From Candidatus Saccharimonadales bacterium (lineage in GTDB: Bacteria; Patescibacteriota; Saccharimonadia; UBA4664; DATIHN01): a stretch of DNA of 64,000 nucleotides. Each line of letters opens with the position of its first letter. Position 1 is the stretch's first letter. Shown in pieces: positions 2,417 to 41,580 of the stretch. The stretch is taken from positions 562-64,561 of the forward strand of contig DATIHN010000016.1 in NCBI GenBank assembly GCA_035480635.1. Direction: 5' to 3'. The translations under genes and the position numbers were made by a program. The notes beneath the pieces were generated by a model. It had not been told where the DNA came from and made no database searches. It saw only the letters and a program-made list of their open reading frames with translations.

Positions 2417-4870
2417 TTATTTCTTCAGGGTTGGTTGGCCGAGGGTCAGGCCATCGCCGCGGCGCAGCACGGTCACGGTATCGCCGGGTTTGAATTGGCC
2501 TGCCAGGATGCCATTCGCCAGCGGGTCTTCGATGTAGTCTTGGATAGCTCGTCGCATCGGCCGAGCACCCTGATCAACGTCGTAGCCCTTTTCGATTAAG
2601 TAATCTTTGGCTTGGGGCGTAACTTTGAGGCTAATGCCCTGTTCGCTAACACGTTCGTATAAATCGGCTAATTGGACCGCTAGGATTTTGCGCACATCCG
2701 GCCGGCTCAGGCTCTTGAAAACGATGACTTTATCCAGCCGATTTAAGAATTCTGGCCGGAAAGTCTTTTTGAGATCGCCCATGACCTTTTCGGTCACTTG
2801 GTTGTGAGCTTCCTCCAGCTCTTTTTGCTCACCAACGGTTTGGGCCTTAAAGCCCAGCACCGCCTCGCGGTAGAGGCTCTCGGCGCCGACGTTACTGGTC
2901 ATAATAATAATGGTGTTGCGGAAGTCCACCCGCCGGCCTTTGGCGTCGGTTAATTGACCGTCTTCAAGAACCTGCAACAGCATATTGAAGACATCGGGGT
3001 GGGCCTTTTCGATTTCATCGAGCAGCACCAGACTGTAGGGCTTCCGGCGAACGGTTTCGGTAAGCTGGCCACCTTCGTCGTAGCCAACATAACCAGCCGG
3101 AGCTCCGACCAAGCGGGAGGTGTTGTGGCGTTCCATGAATTCGCTCATGTCGATTTTGACGATGGCATCGTCGCTTTGGAACATTTCGCTTGCTAGCACC
3201 CGCGCCAGTTCGGTTTTACCCACGCCAGTGGGCCCAAGGAACATAAATGAGCCGATCGGGCGTTTAGCATCACTTATACCGGTACGGCTGCGGCGGATTG
3301 ATTTGGCCACTTCTTTTACGGCTTCGTCTTGACCAATGACGCGCTTGCGTAGGGTATCTTCGAGTTTAACTAAGTTTTCGGTATCAGTTTTAACTAGACG
3401 AGTCACGGGTACGCCGGTGATCAGGCTAATAACTTGAGCGATGTCCTCGGCGGTAATCTGAATGGTGTCTTCGTTTTTTTGGCTGGAGAGCTTTTGCTCG
3501 ATGATGCTGACCTTGGTTTTGAGCCGAGCGGCCAGTTCAAAATCTTGGCCGTCAACCGCTTCATCCATATCGGCCTTGGCTTCGACCAATTGCTTTTGTA
3601 AACCCCGGGTGTTTTTATTGGTACTGCCGCGCTTAATGCGAGCCAGACTTGCAGCCTCATCGACCAGATCAATGGCCTTATCCGGCAAGAAGCGATCAGC
3701 CACATAGCGCTTGGCTAATTTAGCGGCTTGCTCAATGGCCTCATCGGTGATCTCAACTCGGTGATGCTCTTCGTAACGCTGGCGCAAGCCGTGCAAGACG
3801 GCAATGGTTTCTTCAACTGTCGTTTCGGGCACAATGACGGGTTGGAAGCGCCGCTCCAAAGCCGCGTCTTTTTCAATGTGTTTGCGATATTCATCCAGAG
3901 TGGTGGCACCGATGGTTTGGATTTCGCCGCGAGATAATGAGGGCTTTAAGATGTTGGCGGCGTCAATAGCACCTTCAGCGGCGCCGGCGCCGACCACGGT
4001 GTGGAGCTCATCGATGAACAATATCACTTCAGGTGTGGCCTTGGCCTCGTCTAAAATCTTCTTCAATCGCTCTTCGAACTCGCCGCGGTATTTGGTACCG
4101 GCAATGACGCTGGCTAGATCGAGCATGACGATGCGTTTGTTTAGCAGCATCTCGGGCACTTCGTCGGAAATAATGCGCTGAGCCAAACCCTCGACAATGG
4201 CGGTTTTGCCAACGCCTGGTTCGCCAATTAAAACCGGGTTATTTTTGGTCCGGCGGTTCAAGATTGAGACCACTCGGCCAATTTCATTACTGCGACCAAC
4301 TACGGGATCAAGCTTGCCCTCACTAGCCTTAGCCGTTAGATCAATCCCAAAATGATCCAGGGCCGGAGTCTTCGACTTAGTGCGCTTAGGGCTGGTCGTT
4401 TTGGCCGATTCATCGGAGTAATAGTACTGCTGATTGCTTAAATAATTTTCTAGTTCGGCCCGAACAGTGGCCGGATCAACTTGGATTTCTTTTAATAAGG
4501 AATTAGCTCGAGCACTCTTTTGGCTCAGGATGGCGTAAAGAATATGCTCGGTGCCAGAATAGGGTTGGCCAAATTCTTGGGCAATTCGCAGCGAAATGGT
4601 CAGCGTATCGCGGGCCGTCTCACTGAGTCCCTTGCGATTGGCCCGGGCCAGAGCAGCACTAGAACTACCAGACAACCATAATTCAGCCTTTTCCCAGGTC
4701 ACACCAGCTTCAATCAGAATCTTAGCCCCGATCGAGCCCTCTTGGCGCAACACGCCCAGCAGGATATGTTCGGTGCCAATGTAGCCCGAACCCATGGTTC
4801 TAGCGATCGAATCGGCATTCTCCAGGCTTTTTTTGGCGTTCTCGGTTAATCTTTCAAATGCATCGTGCAT
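2417..4870 (-). CDS. clpC: ATP-dependent Clp protease ATP-binding subunit ClpC (817 aa).
   Basis: Two Clp_N repeats, two AAA+ modules ([16 protein letters not shown]), and a UVR-like linker. Confidence 0.9.
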
Positions 4871-25300: not shown

Positions 25301-25828
25301 GTGGAGATGCCGAAGTTCGCATTAGTTGCCATCGATGGCGATAACATCGACCGCACGCTCTTTGGGGAGCTCAAGAGTCAACTTGCCCCAGGGGTCTTGG
25401 TGGAAGTGATAGCCGAACTGCTCCCCAATCACACCACCTGGAGCCTGGGCTGCTACACGGTTCCGCAAACCGACCGAGCTATGTCTCTCCAGCAGCATTA
25501 TCTGCGCGAGTTGGTGGCAGCCGGTATCGCTATTCGGCGATGGCGGCGGGGAGCCATTCGCGGCCGTACCGTCGGCTACCCCGACAGCTGGCTGGTGGAG
25601 CAGGTGGTGACCATTTGGGATCGATTCGACACGCTGGTATTAGTGACGGCCGACCGGGACTACGTCCCCTTGTTATCTAATGCCCAAGCCATGGGCAAAG
25701 ACACCGTCGTGCTTTCACCTCAACCGGTGGCTTGGCCCAGCTTCGTGCGAGTACATGAACTCGACTGGCTCGACACTCAACACCCAGGTCTTCTACGCTC
25801 ACTTATTGCCGCCCCGGCCTGGATATAA
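25301..25828 (+). CDS. NYN-domain (LabA-like, PIN-related) RNase.
   Basis: ALVAIDGDNIDR and LVLVTADRDYVPLL...GKDTVVL match the NYN acidic motifs. Confidence 0.7.
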   Translation: MEMPKFALVAIDGDNIDRTLFGELKSQLAPGVLVEVIAELLPNHTTWSLGCYTVPQTDRAMSLQQHYLRELVAAGIAIRRWRRGAIRGRTVGYPDSWLVEQVVTIWDRFDTLVLVTADRDYVPLLSNAQAMGKDTVVLSPQPVAWPSFVRVHELDWLDTQHPGLLRSLIAAPAWI

Positions 25829-26726: not shown

Positions 26727-26743
26727 CCGGCCAACCGACTTGT

Positions 26744-26779
26744 GGGCCGAGGCTTCGTGCCTCGGCCCACTTTCTTTTG
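26744..26779 (+). terminator. Rho-independent terminator.
   Basis: GGGCCGAGGC TTCGT GCCTCGGCCC followed by ACTTTCTTTTG. Confidence 0.65.
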
Positions 26780-26856
26780 CCCTCATACATGTGGCAAAAG
26801 ACAAATTTTGGTCTGCTGAGCCATCTCGTTGTGCATCTTAAGTTCCATTAATTCTG

Positions 26857-27761
26857 GAGGGAGAACTCAAGTTCTCGCAAATAGTCTGGTCGAGTACAGT
26901 GGGGTCGTGTAGGTAAAGGCTTGCAGAACTACGGTACCGGGTAGGGACTGATGTTCCTACCATACCTAATGTTGGGCTAGGCTTGGTTCCGCTGGGTTGG
27001 TCAGCGTTTAGTGTGGTTATCTACCGGGCAGCAGCCGTCATGCTACTGCCAAACCTGCCCTACGGTGTGGTCCGGCCTGCTTCGTTGTGATGCCACCCAG
27101 TTAGGCATGGGGTAGCGGTCGCCAGACCGCTACTATAACTCCGGTAGGGTCCGCCATTGCAGTGTCGCCCACGCAGTTGTATGGCCCGCATGACTAGGGT
27201 TTGGTGGACTTTGGGGCGGCAGCCGACAGGTTGCCGCCATTACCTTATGTAAGGTTTACTGGGTTAGGGTTCGGCTCCATAGGCCTAGCTATTCTGCTGC
27301 TCGGGGCGGGAGAACCAAGATTCTCCCGCCAACCCTATTGTTTGGTACTGCCAGCTCACGTAAAGCATAGCTGCGTAGTCTAAGGCAAGGGGCAGCAGCT
27401 CCGGCTGCTGCCATCAGTCACGGTGACGTTCCGTGGATTAGGCTTTTGCCAGCCATGGCGTTGTCATGCTTGGTACGGGGTGGGAACCACAAAGCTCCCA
27501 CCATGGTTAGTCCACTGTGTGGTTGAGCCTGGTTTGTCGTCGTCGAGCTTGGCACACTTAGGGGCGAGACCGCTTGAACGGTCTCGCTGACACTTGTGGT
27601 AAGGTTGAGATCCCTACAGTAGAGTGCTATCGGCTTAGCTACGGGGTAGTGGCTCCGGCCGCTGCCGACATTGTGGTCGACTAGCGTAGAGTTGATTACT
27701 CTGTTGTGTGTCTCGTTTGAGTTTCCTAAGGGGTGGGGAGGGACTAAAATCCTTCCCCACC
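26857..27761 (+). repeat. Array 1: 11 tandem units of about 85 bp, each starting with a GGGG-initiated GC-rich stem-loop. Sequences diverge but structure is conserved.
   Basis: Hairpin starts at 26857, 26939, 27026, 27109, 27214, 27303, 27389, 27477, 27561, 27643 and 27730, with 82-105 bp spacing. Stems co-vary, with plus-strand G-U wobbles and one C-A mismatch in unit 3. There is no ORF. Confidence 0.7.
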
Positions 27762-27870
27762 AACAACTTTCATCGTTCTTATGGTGCTATCGTTTCACAT
27801 ACGATGCCACCTCGGCCTGATGACAGTCCGGACACCTTGACACTCGAATAGATAGAAAGGAGGGAACCGC

Positions 27871-29694: not shown

Positions 29695-29757
29695 GGAACA
29701 CATTTACGGTAGAGCCAGGCTAGATACGTTAGTGCAGCGCGAAGCAGGCTAAGTTGT

Positions 29758-30790
29758 CGGTGGAGAGGCCGAGCTATGGGCCTCTCCACAAACTATCTGG
29801 TTCGGTAACGCGGGCTCAACTTTTGTGCCGTCATCTACTGATTGGTGCGGGGCAGCGACTTTGGTCGCTGCCAATCATTAGCTTCGGCTAGGTCAGGCTT
29901 TGCGCGCTGCTATAGGGCGGAGTTTGGTCCTGGTGGGGAGGCGAAACAGTTGGCCTCTCCACAAAACTTTCGTTAAGGTGTGGTATGGTTTGCCAGTTTT
30001 CGGTCTGCCACATCTTGGGTGGAGAAGCCAAACAGCTTCTCCATGAAAATCAGTGGTAGGGTAGCACGAGCCGTTGGACTCAGCCTTATTCTTGGGTATC
30101 GGGTGGAGTACCCAACTCCACCAAAAATTTGCTTAGCTATGCTAAGGTTATCCCCGGTGGCCTACGGTCTGGGACGGAGGCATTAGTGTCTTCGTCAAAC
30201 CTTAGGTATGGTGACCCCCTCTCCGTTGACGTATGCCAAGGCCACGTAGCTTGCGTTTCTGTTGAGCAGCGAATTGGGCGGAAGCAGAAATGCTTCCGCC
30301 ACTATTTCCGTCAGCTCGGGTTGGCTATGATGTCGTTGCGTTGATCTGGGAACGGTCTACTAGACTACGGGGCGGGGTTGTGTAACCCCGTTAAAAATTA
30401 CGGTCTGTTCAGGCTAGGCGAGCCATGCTGACTTTAGACACGGCCGGCTTCGGGGTGGGAGTGACGATGCTTCCACCAGAAATATCGTCAAGTCGAGAGA
30501 TGCACAGTGCTGTTGTTTTGCGTGAAGTACGGCTCGATAGGGTAAAGGGTGGCCGAGCAATCGGCCACTATGACTTGGGTTCGCTACTCTGTAGTAATGT
30601 CGCTTTCAGCATCGCATAGTATTGGGTGGCTGGCTTGCTAGCCACCAGCCCTACGCTAGGATTCAGTCCGGCTTTGTGGGCCTCGGTAGCTCACGGCATT
30701 CCACAGCCCGCTCGAGTCCGTTGCATTGTTCAATGGTTCAGTTGGGTAAGCGGCGGGGAGGCAGTTAAACTGCTTCCCCGCCTTTTCAAT
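29758..30790 (+). repeat. Array 2: about 11 tandem units of the same GGGG-hairpin family. The last hairpin doubles as a terminator.
   Basis: Hairpins at 29761, 29851, 29933, 30020, 30102, 30277, 30373, 30452, 30547, 30624 and 30752. G-U wobbles are plus-strand only. Hairpin K is followed by TTTTC. Confidence 0.65.
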
Positions 30791-30870: not shown

Positions 30871-30944
30871 GGCACCATGGCGGAGTGGTTACGCAGAGGT
30901 CTGCAAAACCTTTTACACCGGTTCGATTCCGGTTGGTGCCTCCA
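30871..30944 (+). tRNA. tRNA-Cys (GCA).
   Basis: Cloverleaf with anticodon loop CTGCAAA, T-loop GGTTCGATTCC, and an encoded CCA. Confidence 0.85.
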
Positions 30945-31076
30945 GGAATTTGGTACAGACATTTGTCTGTGCTGGATTCCTACGAAGCCGGAAGCGAAAG
31001 CGTAGGTTCGGTGGACGTAGGCGCGCAGGCAAGGGACAATAAATTGGTTCTTGCCGAGCACCGAGGGAGGTGGCTG

Positions 31077-31095
31077 CCAAGCCACATTCCGGTTG
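31077..31095 (+). repeat. 19-nt duplicate of the tRNA-Cys 3' end (ATTCCGGTTGGTGCCTCCA).
   Basis: Exact copy of 30926..30944, 133 bp downstream. It resembles an att-site footprint. Confidence 0.7.
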
Positions 31096-31105
31096 GTGCC
31101 TCCAA

Positions 31106-31192
31106 GTAAAACCAGGGCGAGTGGCGGAATTGGTATACGCGGCGGACTTAAAATCCGCTGCCAGCAATGGCTTGAGAGTTCGAGTCTCTCCT
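31106..31192 (+). tRNA. tRNA-Leu (TAA).
   Basis: Anticodon loop CTTAAAA, long variable arm, and CCA. Confidence 0.8.
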
Positions 31193-31240
31193 CGCCCACC
31201 AAAGATAGTCGGGCATTCGAATTTTTGCTAGAATGTGCCG

Positions 31241-31316
31241 ATACAACGTGGCGCCTTAGCTCAGTTGGTAGAGCAGTGGCCTGAAGAGCCTCGTGTCGTT
31301 GGTTCGAATCCAACAG
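31241..31316 (+). tRNA. tRNA-Phe (GAA).
   Basis: GGCGCCTTAGCTCAGTTGGTAGAGC ... CTGAAGA anticodon loop ... GGTTCGAATCC ... CCA. Confidence 0.85.
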
Positions 31317-31460
31317 GCGCCACCAGATTTTAAGAAAATCTGATTTTATTAGGCGAAATCAAACCAAGCCAAGCTGTTTGATGAGCCAAAGGAGAAACCG
31401 AATTGTAAGCCGAAAGTAAATTGGTGCCAATTTACGGAGGCTGGAGGTCGGTTTTGACGC

Positions 31461-31536
31461 GCGGGTGTAGCTCAGCTGATAGAGCGCTTCCTTGCCAAGG
31501 AAGAGGCCCCGGGTTTGAGTCCCGGTACCCGCACCA
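31461..31536 (+). tRNA. tRNA-Gly (GCC).
   Basis: GCGGGTGTAGCTCAG ... TTGCCAA anticodon loop ... GGGTTTGAGTCCC ... CCA. Confidence 0.85.
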
Positions 31537-31661
31537 ACGAAAAAGGCTCACGAGGTAGCCTGTTTCGTTGCCGGTTTCAGAGCGAAAACCCGGGATAGGG
31601 TTTGATAACTAGGAGCACGCGCAGAAGTTTACTTCGAGCATGCGACAAAGTTATACAGAGT

Positions 31662-31680
31662 AGTCCCGGTACCCGCACCA
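31662..31680 (+). repeat. 19-nt duplicate of the tRNA-Gly 3' end (AGTCCCGGTACCCGCACCA).
   Basis: Exact copy of 31518..31536, 126 bp downstream. Confidence 0.7.
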
Positions 31681-31763
31681 GTATTATTGTTAGATCTACT
31701 GCTGACATTATTTTATGCTCGGGATAAGATGGTTGTAGAGTAAAACTTTTGGGGCCAATATAT

Positions 31764-32369
31764 ATGCGCAAAATAATCGTCTTATCATTTATTACACTAG
31801 ATGGAGTCATGCAAGCACCTGGTGGGCCGGACGAAGATACATCGGGCGGTTTTAAATATGGTGGTTGGGTGGCACCGTATTTTGACGAAGAATCTGGTAA
31901 GGTCATGGCAAAACAGATGAAACCGGCCGACCTTTTGTTGGGTCGAAAAACCTTTGAGATTTTTGCATCTTACTGGCCTGAACACACTGACGATTGGCCG
32001 GGTATCAATGATGTTACAAAATACGTTATGAGCAGAACCGTCAAAAAGTCGAATTGGCAAAACTCGGTTTTTCTAGAAAGCTTGGCAGATATCAAGAAAC
32101 TCAAAAATTCAAAAGGTCCCGACCTTCAAGTCCACGGCAGTGGTCAACTCATTCAGCTCCTGCTTAAGAATGATTTAGTGGACGAACTCTGGCTCAAATT
32201 TTTCCCATTGACGCTTGGTGAAGGCAAAAAGTTGTTTGCGGGTGGTGCGATTCCGGCAGCATTTACCTTAACTGAGAGTTCAGTTACATCAAGTGGAGTA
32301 ATTTTTGCTAATTACAAGCGAGCTGGTAAAGTCAACACCGGTACTGTTGGAGATTTAGAAAGTAAATAA
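31764..32369 (+). CDS. Dihydrofolate-reductase-like (RibD C-terminal domain family) protein.
   Basis: MRKIIVLSFITLDGV ... GRKTFE ... HGSGQL ... pattern. Start chosen at the MRKII ATG. Confidence 0.7.
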   Translation: MRKIIVLSFITLDGVMQAPGGPDEDTSGGFKYGGWVAPYFDEESGKVMAKQMKPADLLLGRKTFEIFASYWPEHTDDWPGINDVTKYVMSRTVKKSNWQNSVFLESLADIKKLKNSKGPDLQVHGSGQLIQLLLKNDLVDELWLKFFPLTLGEGKKLFAGGAIPAAFTLTESSVTSSGVIFANYKRAGKVNTGTVGDLESK

Positions 32370-32380
32370 GGAGATACGAT

Positions 32381-32725
32381 ATGCCAAAATTTATGGTGCT
32401 TTATAACTCATCAGCCAAAGCCAACGAGCTAATGGCCAACGCCAGCCCAGAAGAAATGAAGGCCTCTATGAACGAGTGGATACAGTGGCGTGACGATTTA
32501 CCCGAGGATGTTAAGTTCGATTTTGGACTGCCATTGCAAGCCGTCAGTCGAGTTACTACGTCTGGTTTAACCACTAGCGATAGTCCGGTCAACGGCTACG
32601 CCACAATTGAGGGCGAATCGAAAGAAGCAGTACTGGATTTGCTCAAAAACCACCCGCATTTGAAAAGGCCCGATGCCACCATTGATGTGCTCGAAATGCT
32701 ATCGATGCCTGGGCTTGAAGCTTAG
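32381..32725 (+). CDS. YciI-like domain protein.
   Basis: MPKFMVLYN ... profile, about 114 aa. AAGGAGA RBS upstream. Confidence 0.55.
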   Translation: MPKFMVLYNSSAKANELMANASPEEMKASMNEWIQWRDDLPEDVKFDFGLPLQAVSRVTTSGLTTSDSPVNGYATIEGESKEAVLDLLKNHPHLKRPDATIDVLEMLSMPGLEA

Positions 32726-33115
32726 CTAGTCAAACTTAGTAGTACAAAAGGCGCAGCGGGTGGCCATAGCTGGGATTTCGCTCAAGCATTCTGGGCACTT
32801 TTTGGCCACTTCCCCACCTTTGGAAAATTTTTGAGTCAAATGGTTAACGGGTTTGACCACGAAAAAGAAGACTACGCTGGCAACAATTAGGAAGCTAATT
32901 AGAGAATTTAAGAAAATACCATAGTGGATGCTGCTCTTGTGGATGGTCAGCGCTAGGTTTTGAAAGTTTGGCCCTGATCCAATGGCACCGATTAGGGGCG
33001 TTAGAACTTCGCTCACGAATGAGCTGACGAGTACCCCAAAGGCGGCACCAACCACCACACCAACGGCTAGATCAACAACGTTACCTCTGAGTAAAAATTG
33101 GCGAAATTCTTTCAT
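32726..33115 (-). CDS. mscL: Large-conductance mechanosensitive channel.
   Basis: MKEFRQFLLRGNVVDLAVGVVVGAAFG is the MscL signature. Confidence 0.9.
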   Translation of the reverse strand: MKEFRQFLLRGNVVDLAVGVVVGAAFGVLVSSFVSEVLTPLIGAIGSGPNFQNLALTIHKSSIHYGIFLNSLISFLIVASVVFFFVVKPVNHLTQKFSKGGEVAKKCPECLSEIPAMATRCAFCTTKFD

Positions 33116-33156
33116 TACAAGCCTCTTTTACAAGCGTATCTTAGCATAAATATGGC

Positions 33157-33233
33157 TGGTGGGCGGTGAGGGGCTCGAACCCCCGACCTCCTCGGTGTAA
33201 ACGAGGCGCTCTAGCCAACTGAGCTAACCGCCC
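33157..33233 (-). tRNA. tRNA-Val (TAC).
   Basis: The reverse complement folds as GGGCGGTTAGCTCAGTTGGCTAGAGC ... TTTACAC ... GGTTCGAGCCCC ... CCA. Confidence 0.8.
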
Positions 33234-33295
33234 GAACCGTGTAATTTTAATAACTTTTTGAAATTTTGGCAAGTATATAGCTAGTCTTTTTGTGT

Positions 33296-33324
33296 TTGAC
33301 AAATAAACTAAAGTATGATAATAT
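33296..33324 (+). promoter_or_regulatory. Consensus sigma70 promoter: TTGACA, 17 nt spacer, TAATAT.
   Basis: Perfect -35 and a near-perfect -10, about 50 nt upstream of GGAG and ATG 33377. Confidence 0.6.
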
Positions 33325-33376
33325 TTAAACGTTCTCTCGAAGTAACTTCTTACCCTCGATTCGAATGGAGTAAACC

Positions 33377-33655
33377 ATGGCCGCAGACTGTTGCGGTGGC
33401 GAATACGACCTATTCCTGGGATTCACACACAAGCCCGGCTGCCCCTCCAGGCAAGTCGGTGCCGCCCGCCAGGCAGCCGAACGAGACATGGAAGCCGGTC
33501 GCCGGAGCTCTCAAGGCGTCCACGGCGGTTCCTCCACCAGCCCCAGCTACCAGCTCGGGCGAAAGAAGGAGCAGGATCGCCAAGTCAAGCACATCGTCGA
33601 CGAAGTCTTCGGCTTCCCCATCGGCGGGCGCAGACGACGCGGACCACTGCTCTGA
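33377..33655 (+). CDS. Small GC-rich hypothetical protein (92 aa).
   Basis: GGAG RBS 7 nt before the ATG, and a strong promoter. The region has about 63% GC by eye and all three plus-strand frames are open, so frame choice is uncertain. Confidence 0.35.
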   Translation: MAADCCGGEYDLFLGFTHKPGCPSRQVGAARQAAERDMEAGRRSSQGVHGGSSTSPSYQLGRKKEQDRQVKHIVDEVFGFPIGGRRRRGPLL

Positions 33656-33727
33656 CCAAGTGCGAATCTTCGTACAACACCTCCGAGATACTCGCATTCG
33701 TGCGGGTCCCTCCGGGGGTGTTTTCAA

Positions 33728-34468
33728 TTATTCTTGGTGAAACTTTTTGACCAGAGCTTCAATTTTATCAACATATTTAAAGAATTTGTCGCTGCGCATT
33801 GGTCTGGGCCGGGGCAAGTCAATTGCAATAGTATCGACGATTTGGCCGGGTCGGGCACCCAGCACAATTACGCGATCGGCTAGTTGGACGGCCTCGTCAA
33901 CCAAGTGCGTTACCATCACTACGGTGATGTTTTCTGATTCCCAGAGTTTCAAAGTTTCCTCACGCAAGGTTTGAGCGGTAAAGGCATCGAGAGCCGAAAA
34001 TGGTTCGTCCATTAGCAAGATTTGCGGTTCCATGGCTAGGGCTCTAGCGATTCCGACTCGCTGCTTCATGCCACCGCTCAATTCCTTGGGGTGTTTATCC
34101 TCCCAGCCCCTCAGCCCCACCGCATCAATCAAGTGGTTAGTGGTTGATTCAATGTGATGTTGCGGTGCTCCGGCCATGCGCAAGCCAAAGCTAATGTTAT
34201 CTTGAGCCGATAGCCACGGAAAGAGGGCAAAGTTTTGGAAGATCATCGTCATGCGGGCGCTTTCCTGGGGCTCGACCTTACCTTTATTAGCGCTGATTAA
34301 ATCCAAGATAATTCGAAGTAATGTCGATTTGCCGCTGCCCGAAGGGCCAATAATGCAAACGAACTCGCCACTTTCAACGCTAAAGTTAATTTTACGCAAA
34401 ACATCGATGCGATTGCGGCCACGACCGTACCATTTCCAGATATCTTCGACTTTGAGGACTTCGGCCAT
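33728..34468 (-). CDS. ABC transporter ATP-binding protein (nitrate/sulfonate/taurine type).
   Basis: GPSGSGKSTLL Walker A, LSGGMKQRVGIARAL signature, and a Walker B with ILLMDEPFSALD. Confidence 0.85.
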   Translation of the reverse strand: MAEVLKVEDIWKWYGRGRNRIDVLRKINFSVESGEFVCIIGPSGSGKSTLLRIILDLISANKGKVEPQESARMTMIFQNFALFPWLSAQDNISFGLRMAGAPQHHIESTTNHLIDAVGLRGWEDKHPKELSGGMKQRVGIARALAMEPQILLMDEPFSALDAFTAQTLREETLKLWESENITVVMVTHLVDEAVQLADRVIVLGARPGQIVDTIAIDLPRPRPMRSDKFFKYVDKIEALVKKFHQE

Positions 34469-35226
34469 TATGATTCCGCCTGATATTTGGTGGCATTATG
34501 GAGCAGTGGCAGCCAAACGATTTTGTTAATGATGAAGAGCAAGAACATCAAAGCAATTATGCCGGTGGCTAGCAGTGCATTCTGGTGAGCATTGCCAAGC
34601 TGACCTAAATAGTGACCGACGCCTTGATGAACACTGACCAGAAGTTCGGCGCCAATAATAAATTCCCAACCTTCGCCCCAACCAACAATTGAACCGGTGA
34701 TGATGGCCGGCTTAAGCTCTGGTAGAGTGAAATGTCGCAGACGCTTCCAACCCAGCGCGCCAAAGATGGTGGCGGCTTCTTCCAAATCCTCGCGCCGGTT
34801 TTTGAGGCTGCCGACGATGGCAAATAGAATCGGCCAGATCATTTCTACCGCCAAAACCGATATGATGACGACTTCCGGATAGTGCGCTAAGGCCCCAACC
34901 AGCACCGGGAACAGGGCAAAGCTCGGGAAACTCTGCATCACATCCAGAATTGGTAGGAGGAAGTTTTCCACCCAAGTGTTGACGGTGGTGAGTAGTGCCA
35001 GGCTGAGTGCTAGAGTTAAAGCGATAATATAGGCGATCGTTGTACGGGCAAGGCTATAGCCGAAACCGACCAAAAAATCATGAAAGCTCAGGCGGGAACC
35101 TTGGGCGATCCAAAAAATTAAACCACCAACCACGGCAAAGGCCACAACCGCTATCAACCCACTCTTAAAGTGCGATTGCAAAATGTTTTGGCGTTTACTG
35201 GTGCGCAAGTGCGCTGCATACCGCAT
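34468..35226 (-). CDS. ABC transporter permease (BPD inner-membrane component).
   Basis: Six TM helices, an EAA-like loop, and a 1-nt overlap with the ATPase gene. Confidence 0.8.
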   Translation of the reverse strand: MRYAAHLRTSKRQNILQSHFKSGLIAVVAFAVVGGLIFWIAQGSRLSFHDFLVGFGYSLARTTIAYIIALTLALSLALLTTVNTWVENFLLPILDVMQSFPSFALFPVLVGALAHYPEVVIISVLAVEMIWPILFAIVGSLKNRREDLEEAATIFGALGWKRLRHFTLPELKPAIITGSIVGWGEGWEFIIGAELLVSVHQGVGHYLGQLGNAHQNALLATGIIALMFLLFIINKIVWLPLLHNATKYQAES

Positions 35227-35276
35227 ACGCTTAGTATAACAAGTTTTATAAAAACGGCTTCACCAAGAACAACCGT

Positions 35277-35300
35277 TGGTGGGCGAGATGAACTTCGCAT
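35277..35300 (-). repeat. Partial duplicate of the tRNA-Leu 3' end.
   Basis: TGGTGGGCGAGA is identical to 35365..35376, followed by a degenerate GAACTT. Confidence 0.5.
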
Positions 35301-35364
35301 TAAGCTACGCTCATCTTTCGCTTCCAATTGGCCATAGCTCAACTTATGGTTGAGCGACGGCCAA

Positions 35365-35453
35365 TGGTGGGCGAGAGAGGACTTGAACCTCCACGACCCT
35401 TACGGGCCACCAGCCCCTCAAGCTGACGCGTCTACCAATTCCGCCACTCGCCC
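35365..35453 (-). tRNA. tRNA-Leu (GAG).
   Basis: The reverse complement reads GGGCGAGTGGCGGAATTGGTAGACGC ... CTTGAGG ... long variable arm ... GGTTCAAGTCCTCT ... CCA. Confidence 0.8.
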
Positions 35454-35570
35454 TCGTCCAAACTGTACTCCAGCTTACACAAGTTATCCAACTTGCTTCA
35501 GCTTACGAACAGTTTCTCCTCTCGAAGCTCTAAACATCCGCCAAATGGCGGATTGGTTTTTCGCTTCGTC
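35454..35570 (-). repeat. About 117-bp conserved tRNA-Leu 5' leader, copy 1.
   Basis: Nearly identical to 39058..39177 (3-4 mismatches). Contains CAAGTT ATCC AACTTG and CCGCCA AAT GGCGG hairpins. Confidence 0.75.
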
Positions 35571-38971: not shown

Positions 38972-39057
38972 TGGTGGGCGAGAGAGGACTTGAACCTCCA
39001 CGGGGTTGCCCCCACTAGCTCCTGAAGCTAGCGTGTCTACCATTTCACCACTCGCCC
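38972..39057 (-). tRNA. tRNA-Leu (CAG).
   Basis: The reverse complement reads GGGCGAGTGGTGAAATGGTAGACAC ... TTCAGGA ... variable arm ... GGTTCAAGTCCTCT ... CCA. Confidence 0.8.
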
Positions 39058-39177
39058 TCGTCCAAACTGTACTCCAGCTTACGCAAGTAATCCAACTTGC
39101 TTCAGCTTACAAACAGTTTCTCCTCTCGAAGCTCTAAACATCCGCCAAATGGCGGATTGGTTTTTCGCTTCGTATTA
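39058..39177 (-). repeat. About 117-bp conserved tRNA-Leu 5' leader, copy 2.
   Basis: Direct repeat of 35454..35570. Confidence 0.75.
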
Positions 39178-40971: not shown

Positions 40972-41192
40972 TAACTTTTAGACAACAAGCTCAACAGTAG
41001 CGATAATACAAAAATGACCGCCAGAATGATGGTGGCATTATAGAGCAACTTTTCGGCTCCGCGTTTACTGCGGTAGGCATTACTTTCACCACCAAAGGCT
41101 GTGCCCAGGCTTGAACCCTGAGATTGCATAAGGATGGCACCGATCATGAGGACGGCCGAGAGAGCGGCCACGATATTAAACAGGCTTTTCAT
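40971..41192 (-). CDS. secG: Preprotein translocase subunit SecG.
   Basis: 73 aa with two TM helices and the MQSQGSSLGTAFGG motif. Confidence 0.7.
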   Translation of the reverse strand: MKSLFNIVAALSAVLMIGAILMQSQGSSLGTAFGGESNAYRSKRGAEKLLYNATIILAVIFVLSLLLSLLSKS

Positions 41193-41580
41193 GCTTTTCC
41201 AAATTAGGTTGACGTAAGTCGTTTAAGAGATAGTTAACTAGCCAGATAACGATGACGGCCAGAAGCCCTGCCCAAAACGAATTGACGTGGAATGGGTGGT
41301 AGAAGACAGTCACCAGGTAGAGCATTAGAGTATTAACAACTAGGGTAAAGAGCCCCAACGTTAGAACAATGGCTGGCAGGGCCAGAATGATCACCAGCGG
41401 CCGAATCAAAGCGTTGACGATCGAAAAAATCAAGGCTGCAAAAACAAGATAGCGAACTTTGTCGCCATACGTGATTCCTGTGACTAAATTGGCGGCTATC
41501 CACAAACCCAGGAAGTTGACCAACCACCGCAGTAAAAACTGTTTCAGCATTGCGCCAACCATTGTAGCATGAGGGCTCAC
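41176..41580 (-). CDS. DUF360/phage-holin-4-like membrane protein.
   Basis: Four TM helices and an LRWLVNFLGLWIA ... NALIRPL pattern. Confidence 0.55.
   Translation of the reverse strand: MSPHATMVGAMLKQFLLRWLVNFLGLWIAANLVTGITYGDKVRYLVFAALIFSIVNALIRPLVIILALPAIVLTLGLFTLVVNTLMLYLVTVFYHPFHVNSFWAGLLAVIVIWLVNYLLNDLRQPNLEKHEKPV

Follow-up and report, generated by a model that had tools for sequence, protein, structure and literature searches.

Three of the seven tRNA genes that ARAGORN finds in a 64-kb stretch of DNA from a Candidatus Saccharimonadales bacterium (contig DATIHN010000016.1; the whole stretch is hereafter the window), namely those for tRNA-Cys, tRNA-Gly, and tRNA-Leu(GAG), are each followed by an insert of 76–141 nt that closes with an exact copy of the gene's own last 12–19 nt. 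These exact repeats are real and not a product of chance. Our favored reading, to which we give a probability of roughly 45%, is that the modules are small, lineage-specific insertions of the att type at tRNA 3′ ends, bounded by duplication of the terminal 12–19 nt. It is ranked first because, to our knowledge, site-specific integration alone among established processes leaves an intact tRNA together with an insert, a displaced copy of its end, and the native flank.

The three cases share one geometry. Each copy has the orientation of its tRNA, lies downstream of it, and reaches the CCA. The copies of tRNA-Cys (ATTCCGGTTGGTGCCTCCA) and tRNA-Gly (AGTCCCGGTACCCGCACCA) both comprise the last 19 nt of the gene, start at T-loop nucleotide A58, and extend through the encoded CCA, and across the three genes all 19 + 19 + 12 repeat positions are unmutated. 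The two occurrences of the Cys 19-mer have a start-to-start spacing of 160 nt; the first-pass annotation had placed the distal one at 31077–31095, a 9-nt slip, and it occupies 31086–31104. The equality it reported between 31518–31536 and 31662–31680 at tRNA-Gly is exact, with a 125-nt spacer, and the 12-nt copy of tRNA-Leu(GAG) falls inside the interval 35277–35300 where it had suspected a partial case. A GGTGGCTGCCAAGCCAC hairpin at 31069–31085 stands just 5′ of the Cys copy, the hairpin that opens the Gly module contains a weak terminator-like stem (31544–31561) followed by GTTTCGTT, and the Leu copy is succeeded by a weak terminator-like hairpin with a T-run and then by an ABC permease gene from 35226.

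Chance and assembly artifact are ruled out by three observations. An exact terminal 19-mer is expected by chance within 400 nt about 1.5e-9 times, and a 12-mer about 2e-5 times. The upstream side serves as a control: across all loci collected, 287 tRNAs were scanned (248 of them from the metagenomic loci L085–L204), and none has an upstream 3′-terminal copy of at least 10 nt within 400 nt. Finally, a second assembly of this species (GCA_964637125.1, locus L001) matches the Gly and Leu modules at 100% identity, so that these are not assembly artifacts; its identity to the window spans 31461–35395 (3.9 kb), and the Cys module lies outside that contig.

The polarity of the repeats can be read from the sequences that flank them. 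A related contig, L128, keeps the Phe-Gly-RibD_C order of the window and carries an insertion of its own at tRNA-Gly. There, GTCATTATTACAGAT stands directly 3′ of tRNA-Gly, and the same string, then GCTCGGGAT, then RibD_C, follows the distal copy of a 22-nt repeat. This repeat, CGCACCAGTCATTATTACAGAT, takes 7 nt from the tRNA-Gly end and 15 nt from the flank, and its distal copy, 634 nt further on, leads into GCTCGGGAT and the start of RibD_C. In the window, GTATTATTGTTAGAT, GCTCGGGAT, and RibD_C follow the Gly copy, not tRNA-Gly itself. (The comparison was made by direct reading, as MAFFT aligns such short stretches poorly.) The Cys copy, for its part, ends 10 nt upstream of tRNA-Leu(TAA), and since the spacer between tRNA-Cys and tRNA-Leu(TAA) is at most 35 nt in 36 of 83 relatives, the copy sits where the ancestral tRNA-Cys end would be. 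With the Gly copy on native flank and the Cys copy so close to the next tRNA, it is the distal copies that represent the original ends, now displaced. Each case thus reads as the insertion of a new end plus a spacer that left the tRNA intact, which is Campbell or att-type geometry: as in att-bounded elements, a direct repeat of the tRNA 3′ end is found with an intact tRNA on one side and a distal copy on the native flank.

Relatives differ in whether they carry such modules. A metagenome scan with a 32-nt query covering the D-arm and anticodon arm of tRNA-Cys (tRNA nt 10–41) returned 120 loci; the relatives compared are at the family level only, and exact empty-site junctions in them are unreadable. 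In the 116 tRNA-Cys loci, a copy of at least 19 nt of the tRNA-Cys 3′ end is found in only one further distinct sequence (L107, of which L154 is an identical second sample), whose insert is unrelated to the Cys module of the window. L128 has a tRNA-Cys 3′ end identical to that of the window, a 46-nt spacer, and no copy. Occupied and empty sites are thus both present, and blastn finds no homologue of the window's modules in 200 fetched loci. The modules are lineage-specific and not conserved among relatives; universal conservation, which the first-pass annotation had named as the finding that would speak against integration, is not what is seen. In species-representative genomes the best identity of the neighboring purD is only 55%, to Saccharibacteria and other Patescibacteria, the RibD_C homologues looked up at 80–87% identity are not syntenic, and an exact look-up of MscL returns only two short contigs of the same species.

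The same architecture recurs in related contigs with unrelated inserts: a tRNA, a hairpin that is often terminator-like, tens to about 130 nt of further sequence, and the copy (Table 1). The 612-nt insert of L128, which holds a terminator and a 68-aa open reading frame (ORF) without a Pfam match, is an insertion independent of the window's Gly module at the same tRNA. The spacer between tRNA-Cys and tRNA-Leu(TAA) ranges from 1 to 2098 nt among 83 pairs and is at least 400 nt in 31 of them, and the long spacers carry assorted small ORFs, among them those of an HNH endonuclease family. In this lineage, then, the tRNA block is a hot spot for insertion. This part of an earlier proposal stands; the other part, that an adjoining GC-rich island testifies to integration, does not, as set out below. 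Free-standing HNH endonuclease genes of about 160 aa (Pfam HNH_3/HNH) lie between tRNA-Cys and tRNA-Leu(TAA) in at least eight related loci (L102, L104, L122, L124, L135, L142, L146, and L160). Other spacers hold a 129-aa ORF that matches nucleoside 2-deoxyribosyltransferase only weakly (19.6 bits, below the cutoff of 28.8), and some spacer ORFs appear deaminase- or NUDIX-like by their N-terminal sequence only.

Table 1. Repeat-bounded modules at tRNA 3′ ends, with adjoining features, in the window and in related contigs
Locus	Feature	Position	Strand	Repeat	Insert	Basis
Window	tRNA-Cys(GCA), intact, encoded CCA; proximal repeat, 30926–30944 (last 19 nt)	30871–30944	+	19 nt		ARAGORN; Rfam tRNA model, 65.1 bits
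Window	Cys module; 36-nt hairpin, 30945–30980, right after the CCA	30945–31085	+		141 nt	Sequence
Window	tRNA-Cys 3′-end copy (tRNA nt 58–76, including CCA)	31086–31104	+	19 nt, exact		Repeat search, family D3, 100% identity
Window	tRNA-Leu(TAA), 31115–31201; tRNA-Phe(GAA), 31250–31325	31115–31325	+			ARAGORN
Window	tRNA-Gly(GCC), intact; proximal repeat, 31518–31536 (last 19 nt)	31461–31536	+	19 nt		ARAGORN; Rfam tRNA model
Window	Gly module; opening hairpin, 31537–31568	31537–31661	+		125 nt	Sequence; fold; terminator scan
Window	tRNA-Gly 3′-end copy (tRNA nt 58–76)	31662–31680	+	19 nt, exact		Repeat search, family D4, 100% identity
Window	Ancestral downstream flank of tRNA-Gly, GTATTATTGTTAGAT and GCTCGGGAT, into the RibD_C gene (ATG at 31764)	31681–31763	+			Comparison with relative L128
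Window	tRNA-Leu(GAG), intact	35453–35365	−			ARAGORN; Rfam tRNA model
Window	Leu module; opening 37-nt hairpin, 35364–35328	35289–35364	−		76 nt	Sequence; fold
Window	tRNA-Leu(GAG) 3′-end copy, TCTCGCCCACCA	35288–35277	−	12 nt		Sequence comparison; same strand, 76 nt downstream of tRNA
L107	tRNA-Cys			25 nt	131 nt	
L176	tRNA-Gly			29 nt	120 nt	
L159	tRNA-Leu			14 nt	77 nt	
L085	tRNA-Cys			11 nt	45 nt	
L187	tRNA-Leu			17 nt	800 nt	
L128	tRNA-Gly (1256–1332) to RibD_C		−	22 nt, CGCACCAGTCATTATTACAGAT	612 nt	

Several familiar kinds of sequence can be set aside as the source of the modules. The copies are not pseudo-tRNAs, as they go undetected by ARAGORN and by the Rfam tRNA model even at E = 10 in a 761-nt search. 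In local alignments against shuffles, the spacers resemble the rest of their cognate tRNAs at the level of chance (p = 0.64 for Cys, 0.41 for Gly, and 0.51 for Leu), and identity therefore stops at a sharp junction; such an abrupt end points to a recombination junction rather than to the decay of a duplicated gene. Tandem duplication is rejected because the sequence 3′ of the copy differs from that 3′ of the tRNA. Nor are the modules miniature inverted-repeat or other transposons, as they have no terminal inverted repeats (p = 0.25, 0.95, and 0.29) and no second copy within the window. They do not form one family (pairwise local alignments against shuffles, p = 0.76 for Cys versus Gly and 0.49 for Gly versus Leu); the Cys and Leu modules have an 11-mer in common, with p of about 0.008 uncorrected for 36 comparisons. 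Rfam returns nothing above noise on these modules or on those of the relatives, with RtT, Y-RNA-like, and mascRNA among the families considered. RtT (RF00391), whose covariance model has a gathering score of 45 bits, gives no match in 5.2 kb searched at E ≤ 5 or in 761 nt searched at E ≤ 10.

As RNA, the modules fold far better than shuffled sequences (z = −6.0 for Cys, −3.2 for Gly, and −7.4 for Leu, the Cys module reaching −75.2 kcal/mol), and these low scores are owed mostly to the strong hairpin right after each CCA. In the minimum free energy (MFE) structures, each copy pairs with upstream sequence and leaves the NCCA free, a suggestive picture in which the copy mimics an acceptor/T-arm, but two shuffle tests reveal no excess of pairing. 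The acceptor-strand part of the copy is no more likely to pair with its own spacer than with shuffled ones (fractions 0.16, 0.53, and 0.09), and the best copy–spacer duplex energy is ordinary (fractions 0.37, 0.25, and 0.88). Two Escherichia coli control units, at tyrT and tyrV, pass the duplex test (0.02 and 0.003). We therefore do not count the apparent mimicry as evidence.

Under the att-type reading, a piece of DNA that shared a short identical stretch with a tRNA 3′ end would have recombined into the tRNA gene by a Campbell-type, att-like single crossover. The upstream repeat would complete a functional tRNA, and the downstream repeat would be the displaced original end on its original flank. 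We know of one established agent for such a crossover at tRNA ends, the tyrosine integrase. As the inserts measure only 76–141 nt, the recombinase would therefore have acted in trans or been lost. The inserts may have been born as miniature integrase-less pieces, or they may be what is left of a larger element that collapsed, with the tRNA as one constrained boundary and the next gene or tRNA as the other; either way, they would now be passive extra spacer RNA within tRNA transcription units. An element or phage that carried the Cys module would be expected to show the junction ...GCCAAGCCAC-ATTCCGGTTGGTGCCTCCA-GGAATTTGG... in its own sequence. The general premise has precedent, in that fragments of tRNA genes in prokaryotes are chiefly ascribed to the integration of mobile elements (PMC9897764).

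Several points weigh against this account. Elements bounded by tRNA fragments usually span 9–23 kb (PMC9897764), about 100 times the size of the present inserts. Scans of some 50 ORFs across the entire window reveal no domain of an integrase or of any other recombinase. In viral contigs, nothing matches the Cys 19-mer, the Gly 19-mer occurs only in tRNA genes, and the three module hairpins yield only chance 18–19-mers inside coding sequence. The attL/attR footprint proposed in the first-pass annotation is thus supported in part, by the geometry, the native flank, and the variable occupancy, and no integrase or attP-like phage match was found. Its further suggestion of excision remnants is not supported, as excision by tyrosine integrases is precise and leaves no remnant. 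Relatives, which it had advised comparing, showed no larger element at these tRNAs. The related contigs likewise contain no repeats at 1–8 kb, though 55–114 tRNAs had such downstream sequence, which argues against the gradual collapse of large elements. The scan is able to detect a classical island: the same script found, as a positive control, a copy of tRNA-Asn of at least 30 nt lying 10.5 kb away in L183, beside a 424-aa ORF that is presumed, from its N-terminal sequence only, to be an integrase. Three mini-inserts at three of seven tRNAs within 8 kb would, moreover, need three target specificities. Lastly, both 19-nt repeats begin at nt 58, as does the E. coli tyrT repeat, and this common boundary hints at one common process rather than three unrelated integrases.

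The E. coli units just mentioned belong to the tRNA-linked repeats (TLRs), of which 22 units are described, distributed over ten loci within tRNA and rRNA operons. Their hallmark is that their last 18–19 bp repeat exactly those of the tRNA or rRNA upstream, and no function is known for them except the binding of Hfq and CsrA by RrA/B/F (Stenum et al., PMC8144298). The class includes RttR/rtT, represented in Rfam by RtT, and RrA/B/F, which lie downstream of 5S rRNA. This precedent, which has no established link to an integrase, was missed by the first-pass annotation. It opens the possibility, which we consider doubtful, that the modules are functional RNAs of the same type. The spacer would be co-transcribed with the tRNA, and the copy would supply a tRNA-like terminus, with an acceptor-like helix and NCCA, so that the tRNA 3′-maturation machinery would trim and stabilize a discrete RNA of about 95–160 nt, which would serve as a regulator or decoy in the way suggested for RrA/B/F. 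The anatomy is that of the TLR hallmark of 18–19 nt of terminal identity (PMC8144298), down to the K-12 tyrT/tyrV 19-mer that also starts at nt 58 and the 18-nt copies at argQ and lysQ. By position, the modules are parts of tRNA transcription units, with no promoter- or terminator-like site between the tRNAs that enclose the Cys module; they fold better than shuffles, and their repeats are free of mutation. The pairing of copy and spacer, however, does no better than shuffled spacers in a test that tyrT and tyrV pass, the fold scores come mainly from the local hairpin after the CCA, RtT is not matched, and the three modules are neither homologous to one another nor kept by relatives.

An unlikely alternative dispenses with integrases altogether and regards the repeats as by-products of recombination or repair at tRNA genes. 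Candidate routes would be the repair of breaks made by HNH homing endonucleases, template switching at the post-tRNA hairpin, or the arrival of foreign spacers by tRNA-anchored homologous recombination with one illegitimate junction. Such processes are in keeping with the HNH ORFs in the Cys-to-Leu spacers of at least eight related loci, with repeat lengths that differ between events (11 to 29 nt), with the failure to find an integrase anywhere in the window, and with rapid spacer replacement in the second assembly of the same species. In that assembly, L001, the Phe-to-Gly spacer measures 13 nt (4183–4195) against 135 nt in the window (31326–31460) and lacks the Gly leader, next to 3.9 kb of 100% identity. 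The sequence after its tRNA-Leu(GAG) is also altered, positions 1–247 comprising that tRNA, unrelated sequence, a scaffold gap, and then a 3′ part of tRNA-Leu(CAG) type joined to the Leu module. It appears from these changes that tRNA genes act as recombination anchors between strains, and mis-scaffolding of L001 is also possible. The equal boundary of the two 19-nt repeats, on the other hand, is not predicted by an unguided process, the window's tRNA block contains no HNH gene, and we know of no repair pathway that regularly gives a CCA-ending 19-nt duplication with the gene left intact.

The nt-58 boundary gives rise to a bolder and distinctly improbable idea, namely, that the Saccharimonadales modules and the E. 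coli TLRs are products of one undescribed process that copies a fixed length of some 18–19 nt from the mature 3′ terminus of a stable RNA gene. In Cys, Gly, and E. coli Tyr the copy begins at nt 58; in the Arg and Lys copies of E. coli, it begins one position later, at nt 59. A dedicated miniature mobile module that targets tRNA ends, or an RNA-templated event, might be responsible; it would place the copy about 100–160 nt downstream and would yield operon-embedded RNAs with a tRNA-type terminus in both Pseudomonadota and Patescibacteria. Least probable by a wide measure, and already largely refuted, is that the copies are decayed pseudo-tRNAs, that is, tandem tRNA duplicates whose 5′ parts were lost to mutation. 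E. coli TLR units do marginally resemble tRNA-Tyr beyond the 19-mer (p = 0.04), and GCACCGAGGGAGGTGG upstream of the Cys copy looks by eye like the tRNA-Cys 5′ end GCACCATGGCGGAGTGG. Yet tRNA models and spacer alignments are negative, so that the alternative which the first-pass annotation had flagged, of copies being parts of further pseudo-tRNA genes, is not borne out. Neutral decay would not leave 19 of 19 identical positions beside none, and the sequence after each copy does not repeat that after the tRNA.

The wider setting of the tRNA block is one of housekeeping genes, including dnaE, nusA, gatAB, ligA, uvrABC, purD, gap, and pentose-phosphate enzymes. Amid these lie a Phage_holin_4_2 family protein (41176–41580, minus strand) and an NYN-domain protein (25301–25828, plus strand), besides which no phage-like genes were seen among the window ORFs scanned. 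On the plus strand from tRNA-Cys to tRNA-Gly, a scan for promoters and terminators finds only the weak terminator-like stem that opens the Gly module, and the Cys module is, judged by position, probably an internal transcribed spacer of a single tRNA operon. A GC-rich region at 26–30.8 kb, which encodes a DinG-like helicase and includes two stretches without ORFs that are rich in GGTGG...CCAC hairpins, is situated 5′ of tRNA-Cys, on its promoter side. No tRNA fragment bounds this region, and it is therefore not evidence for integration at tRNA-Cys.

The two ORF-free stretches of this region, each of about 1.1 kb (29700–30790 and 26727–27870), are packed with hairpins that are often followed by an A-run. 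Two of these, at 29759–29792 and 29932–29965, are 79% alike and 173 nt apart; others are found at 30018–30046, 30102–30125, 30452–30478, and 30624–30651, and a terminator at 30752–30787 closes the stretch. The window contains 33 instances of the GGTGG...CCAC pattern, where 7.6 would be expected. The hairpin-rich region upstream of tRNA-Cys has no Rfam match above noise, and Tandem Repeats Finder reports nothing at 29.5–31.8 kb. The hairpins could be a family akin to repetitive extragenic palindromes or a structured RNA of a new type.

The tRNA-Leu genes have features of their own. The 5′ leaders of tRNA-Leu(GAG) (35454–35570) and tRNA-Leu(CAG) (39058–39175), both on the minus strand and about 117 nt long, are 97% identical, and the tRNA-Gly leader (31386–31460, plus strand) resembles them significantly, with a score of 32 against a shuffle maximum of 26. 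The predicted leader stem-loop shows compensatory changes (AAACTGT..ACAGTTT versus AAACCGA..TCGGTTT; AGCT/AGCT versus AGCC/GGCT), and the leader shared by the Leu and Gly genes is, on this predicted fold, a putative structured tRNA leader element. At least 30 terminal nt, in addition to the 117-nt leader, are identical between tRNA-Leu(GAG) (35365–35453) and tRNA-Leu(CAG) (38972–39057, minus strand), which flank purD in direct orientation 3.6 kb apart; homologous recombination between the two could readily produce deletions or duplications. The string GAAGCGAAA occurs four times in the 64 kb (at 30991, and at 35316, 35559, and 39163 on the minus strand), and every site shares its strand with a tRNA no more than about 125 nt away. 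As a shared motif it is rejected, as two of the four sites lie in the duplicated Leu leaders and the remaining excess is not significant. A similar string, GAGCGAAAGCG, is present in the E. coli TLR units, and the recurrence is probably a coincidence.

What the modules mean depends on their origin. If they are only scars of integration or recombination, they call for caution in annotation, in that tRNA fragments can confuse island finders and tRNA counts, and they mark the tRNA clusters of reduced Candidate Phyla Radiation (CPR) genomes as active recombination hot spots. If they are true counterparts of TLRs, a repeat class that has gone unexplained for 45 years would extend beyond the Enterobacterales, and independent, non-homologous examples would become available for asking why the last ~19 nt of a stable RNA are copied. 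As matters stand, the modules are a curiosity rather than a new system.

Among known systems, the attL/attR sites of tyrosine-integrase elements (prophages, islands, and integrative and conjugative elements, or ICEs) match the modules in that the repeat is the tRNA 3′ end, the tRNA is reconstituted and intact, the distal copy lies on the original flank, occupancy varies, and repeats of 12–29 nt are within the usual range; the tRNA-Asn of L183, with its presumed integrase at 10.5 kb, is bounded likewise. They differ in what is enclosed. A segment of 76–141 nt, as against 9–23 kb (PMC9897764), is too short for a gene, and the window has no integrase, the modules no cargo, and the searched viral contigs no matching phage or element. 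A further comparison is with cis-mobilizable elements (CIMEs), integrase-less elements that are bounded by att sites at the 3′ end of a conserved gene and are thought to be mobilized in trans. The modules are likewise integrase-less DNA between att-like repeats. Described CIMEs, however, are kilobase-sized and recognizably derived from ICEs, and nothing links the modules to an ICE.

The closest known system is that of the E. coli TLRs. In both, the module immediately follows a tRNA, shares its orientation, and belongs to its operon (here judged by position), with a length of 95–160 nt in the window and about 130–178 nt in E. coli. The terminal identity includes the CCA and extends over 19 of 19 nt for Cys and Gly and over only 12 nt for Leu(GAG). 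The starting point at nt 58 is common to the Cys and Gly copies and to the K-12 tyrT/tyrV 19-mer (AATCCTTCCCCCACCACCA), which has six occurrences at a spacing of 175–178 nt, and K-12 argQ and lysQ have their 18-nt copies 115 and 138 nt downstream. A hairpin or terminator separates gene and module here, comparable to T1 in the rrn operons. E. coli TLRs, however, are one sequence family, and the RtT model scores 133–138 bits at tyrT, 46–60 in the lys/val operon, and 23–31 in the arg operon of K-12, whereas the window's modules have no RtT match and no homology to one another. They are single where E. coli TLRs are tandem, and unconserved where rrA/B/F are conserved across the Enterobacterales, and their copies, unlike that of tyrT, do not pair with an upstream complement above chance. 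The modules thus resemble TLRs in architecture but are not members of the RtT family.

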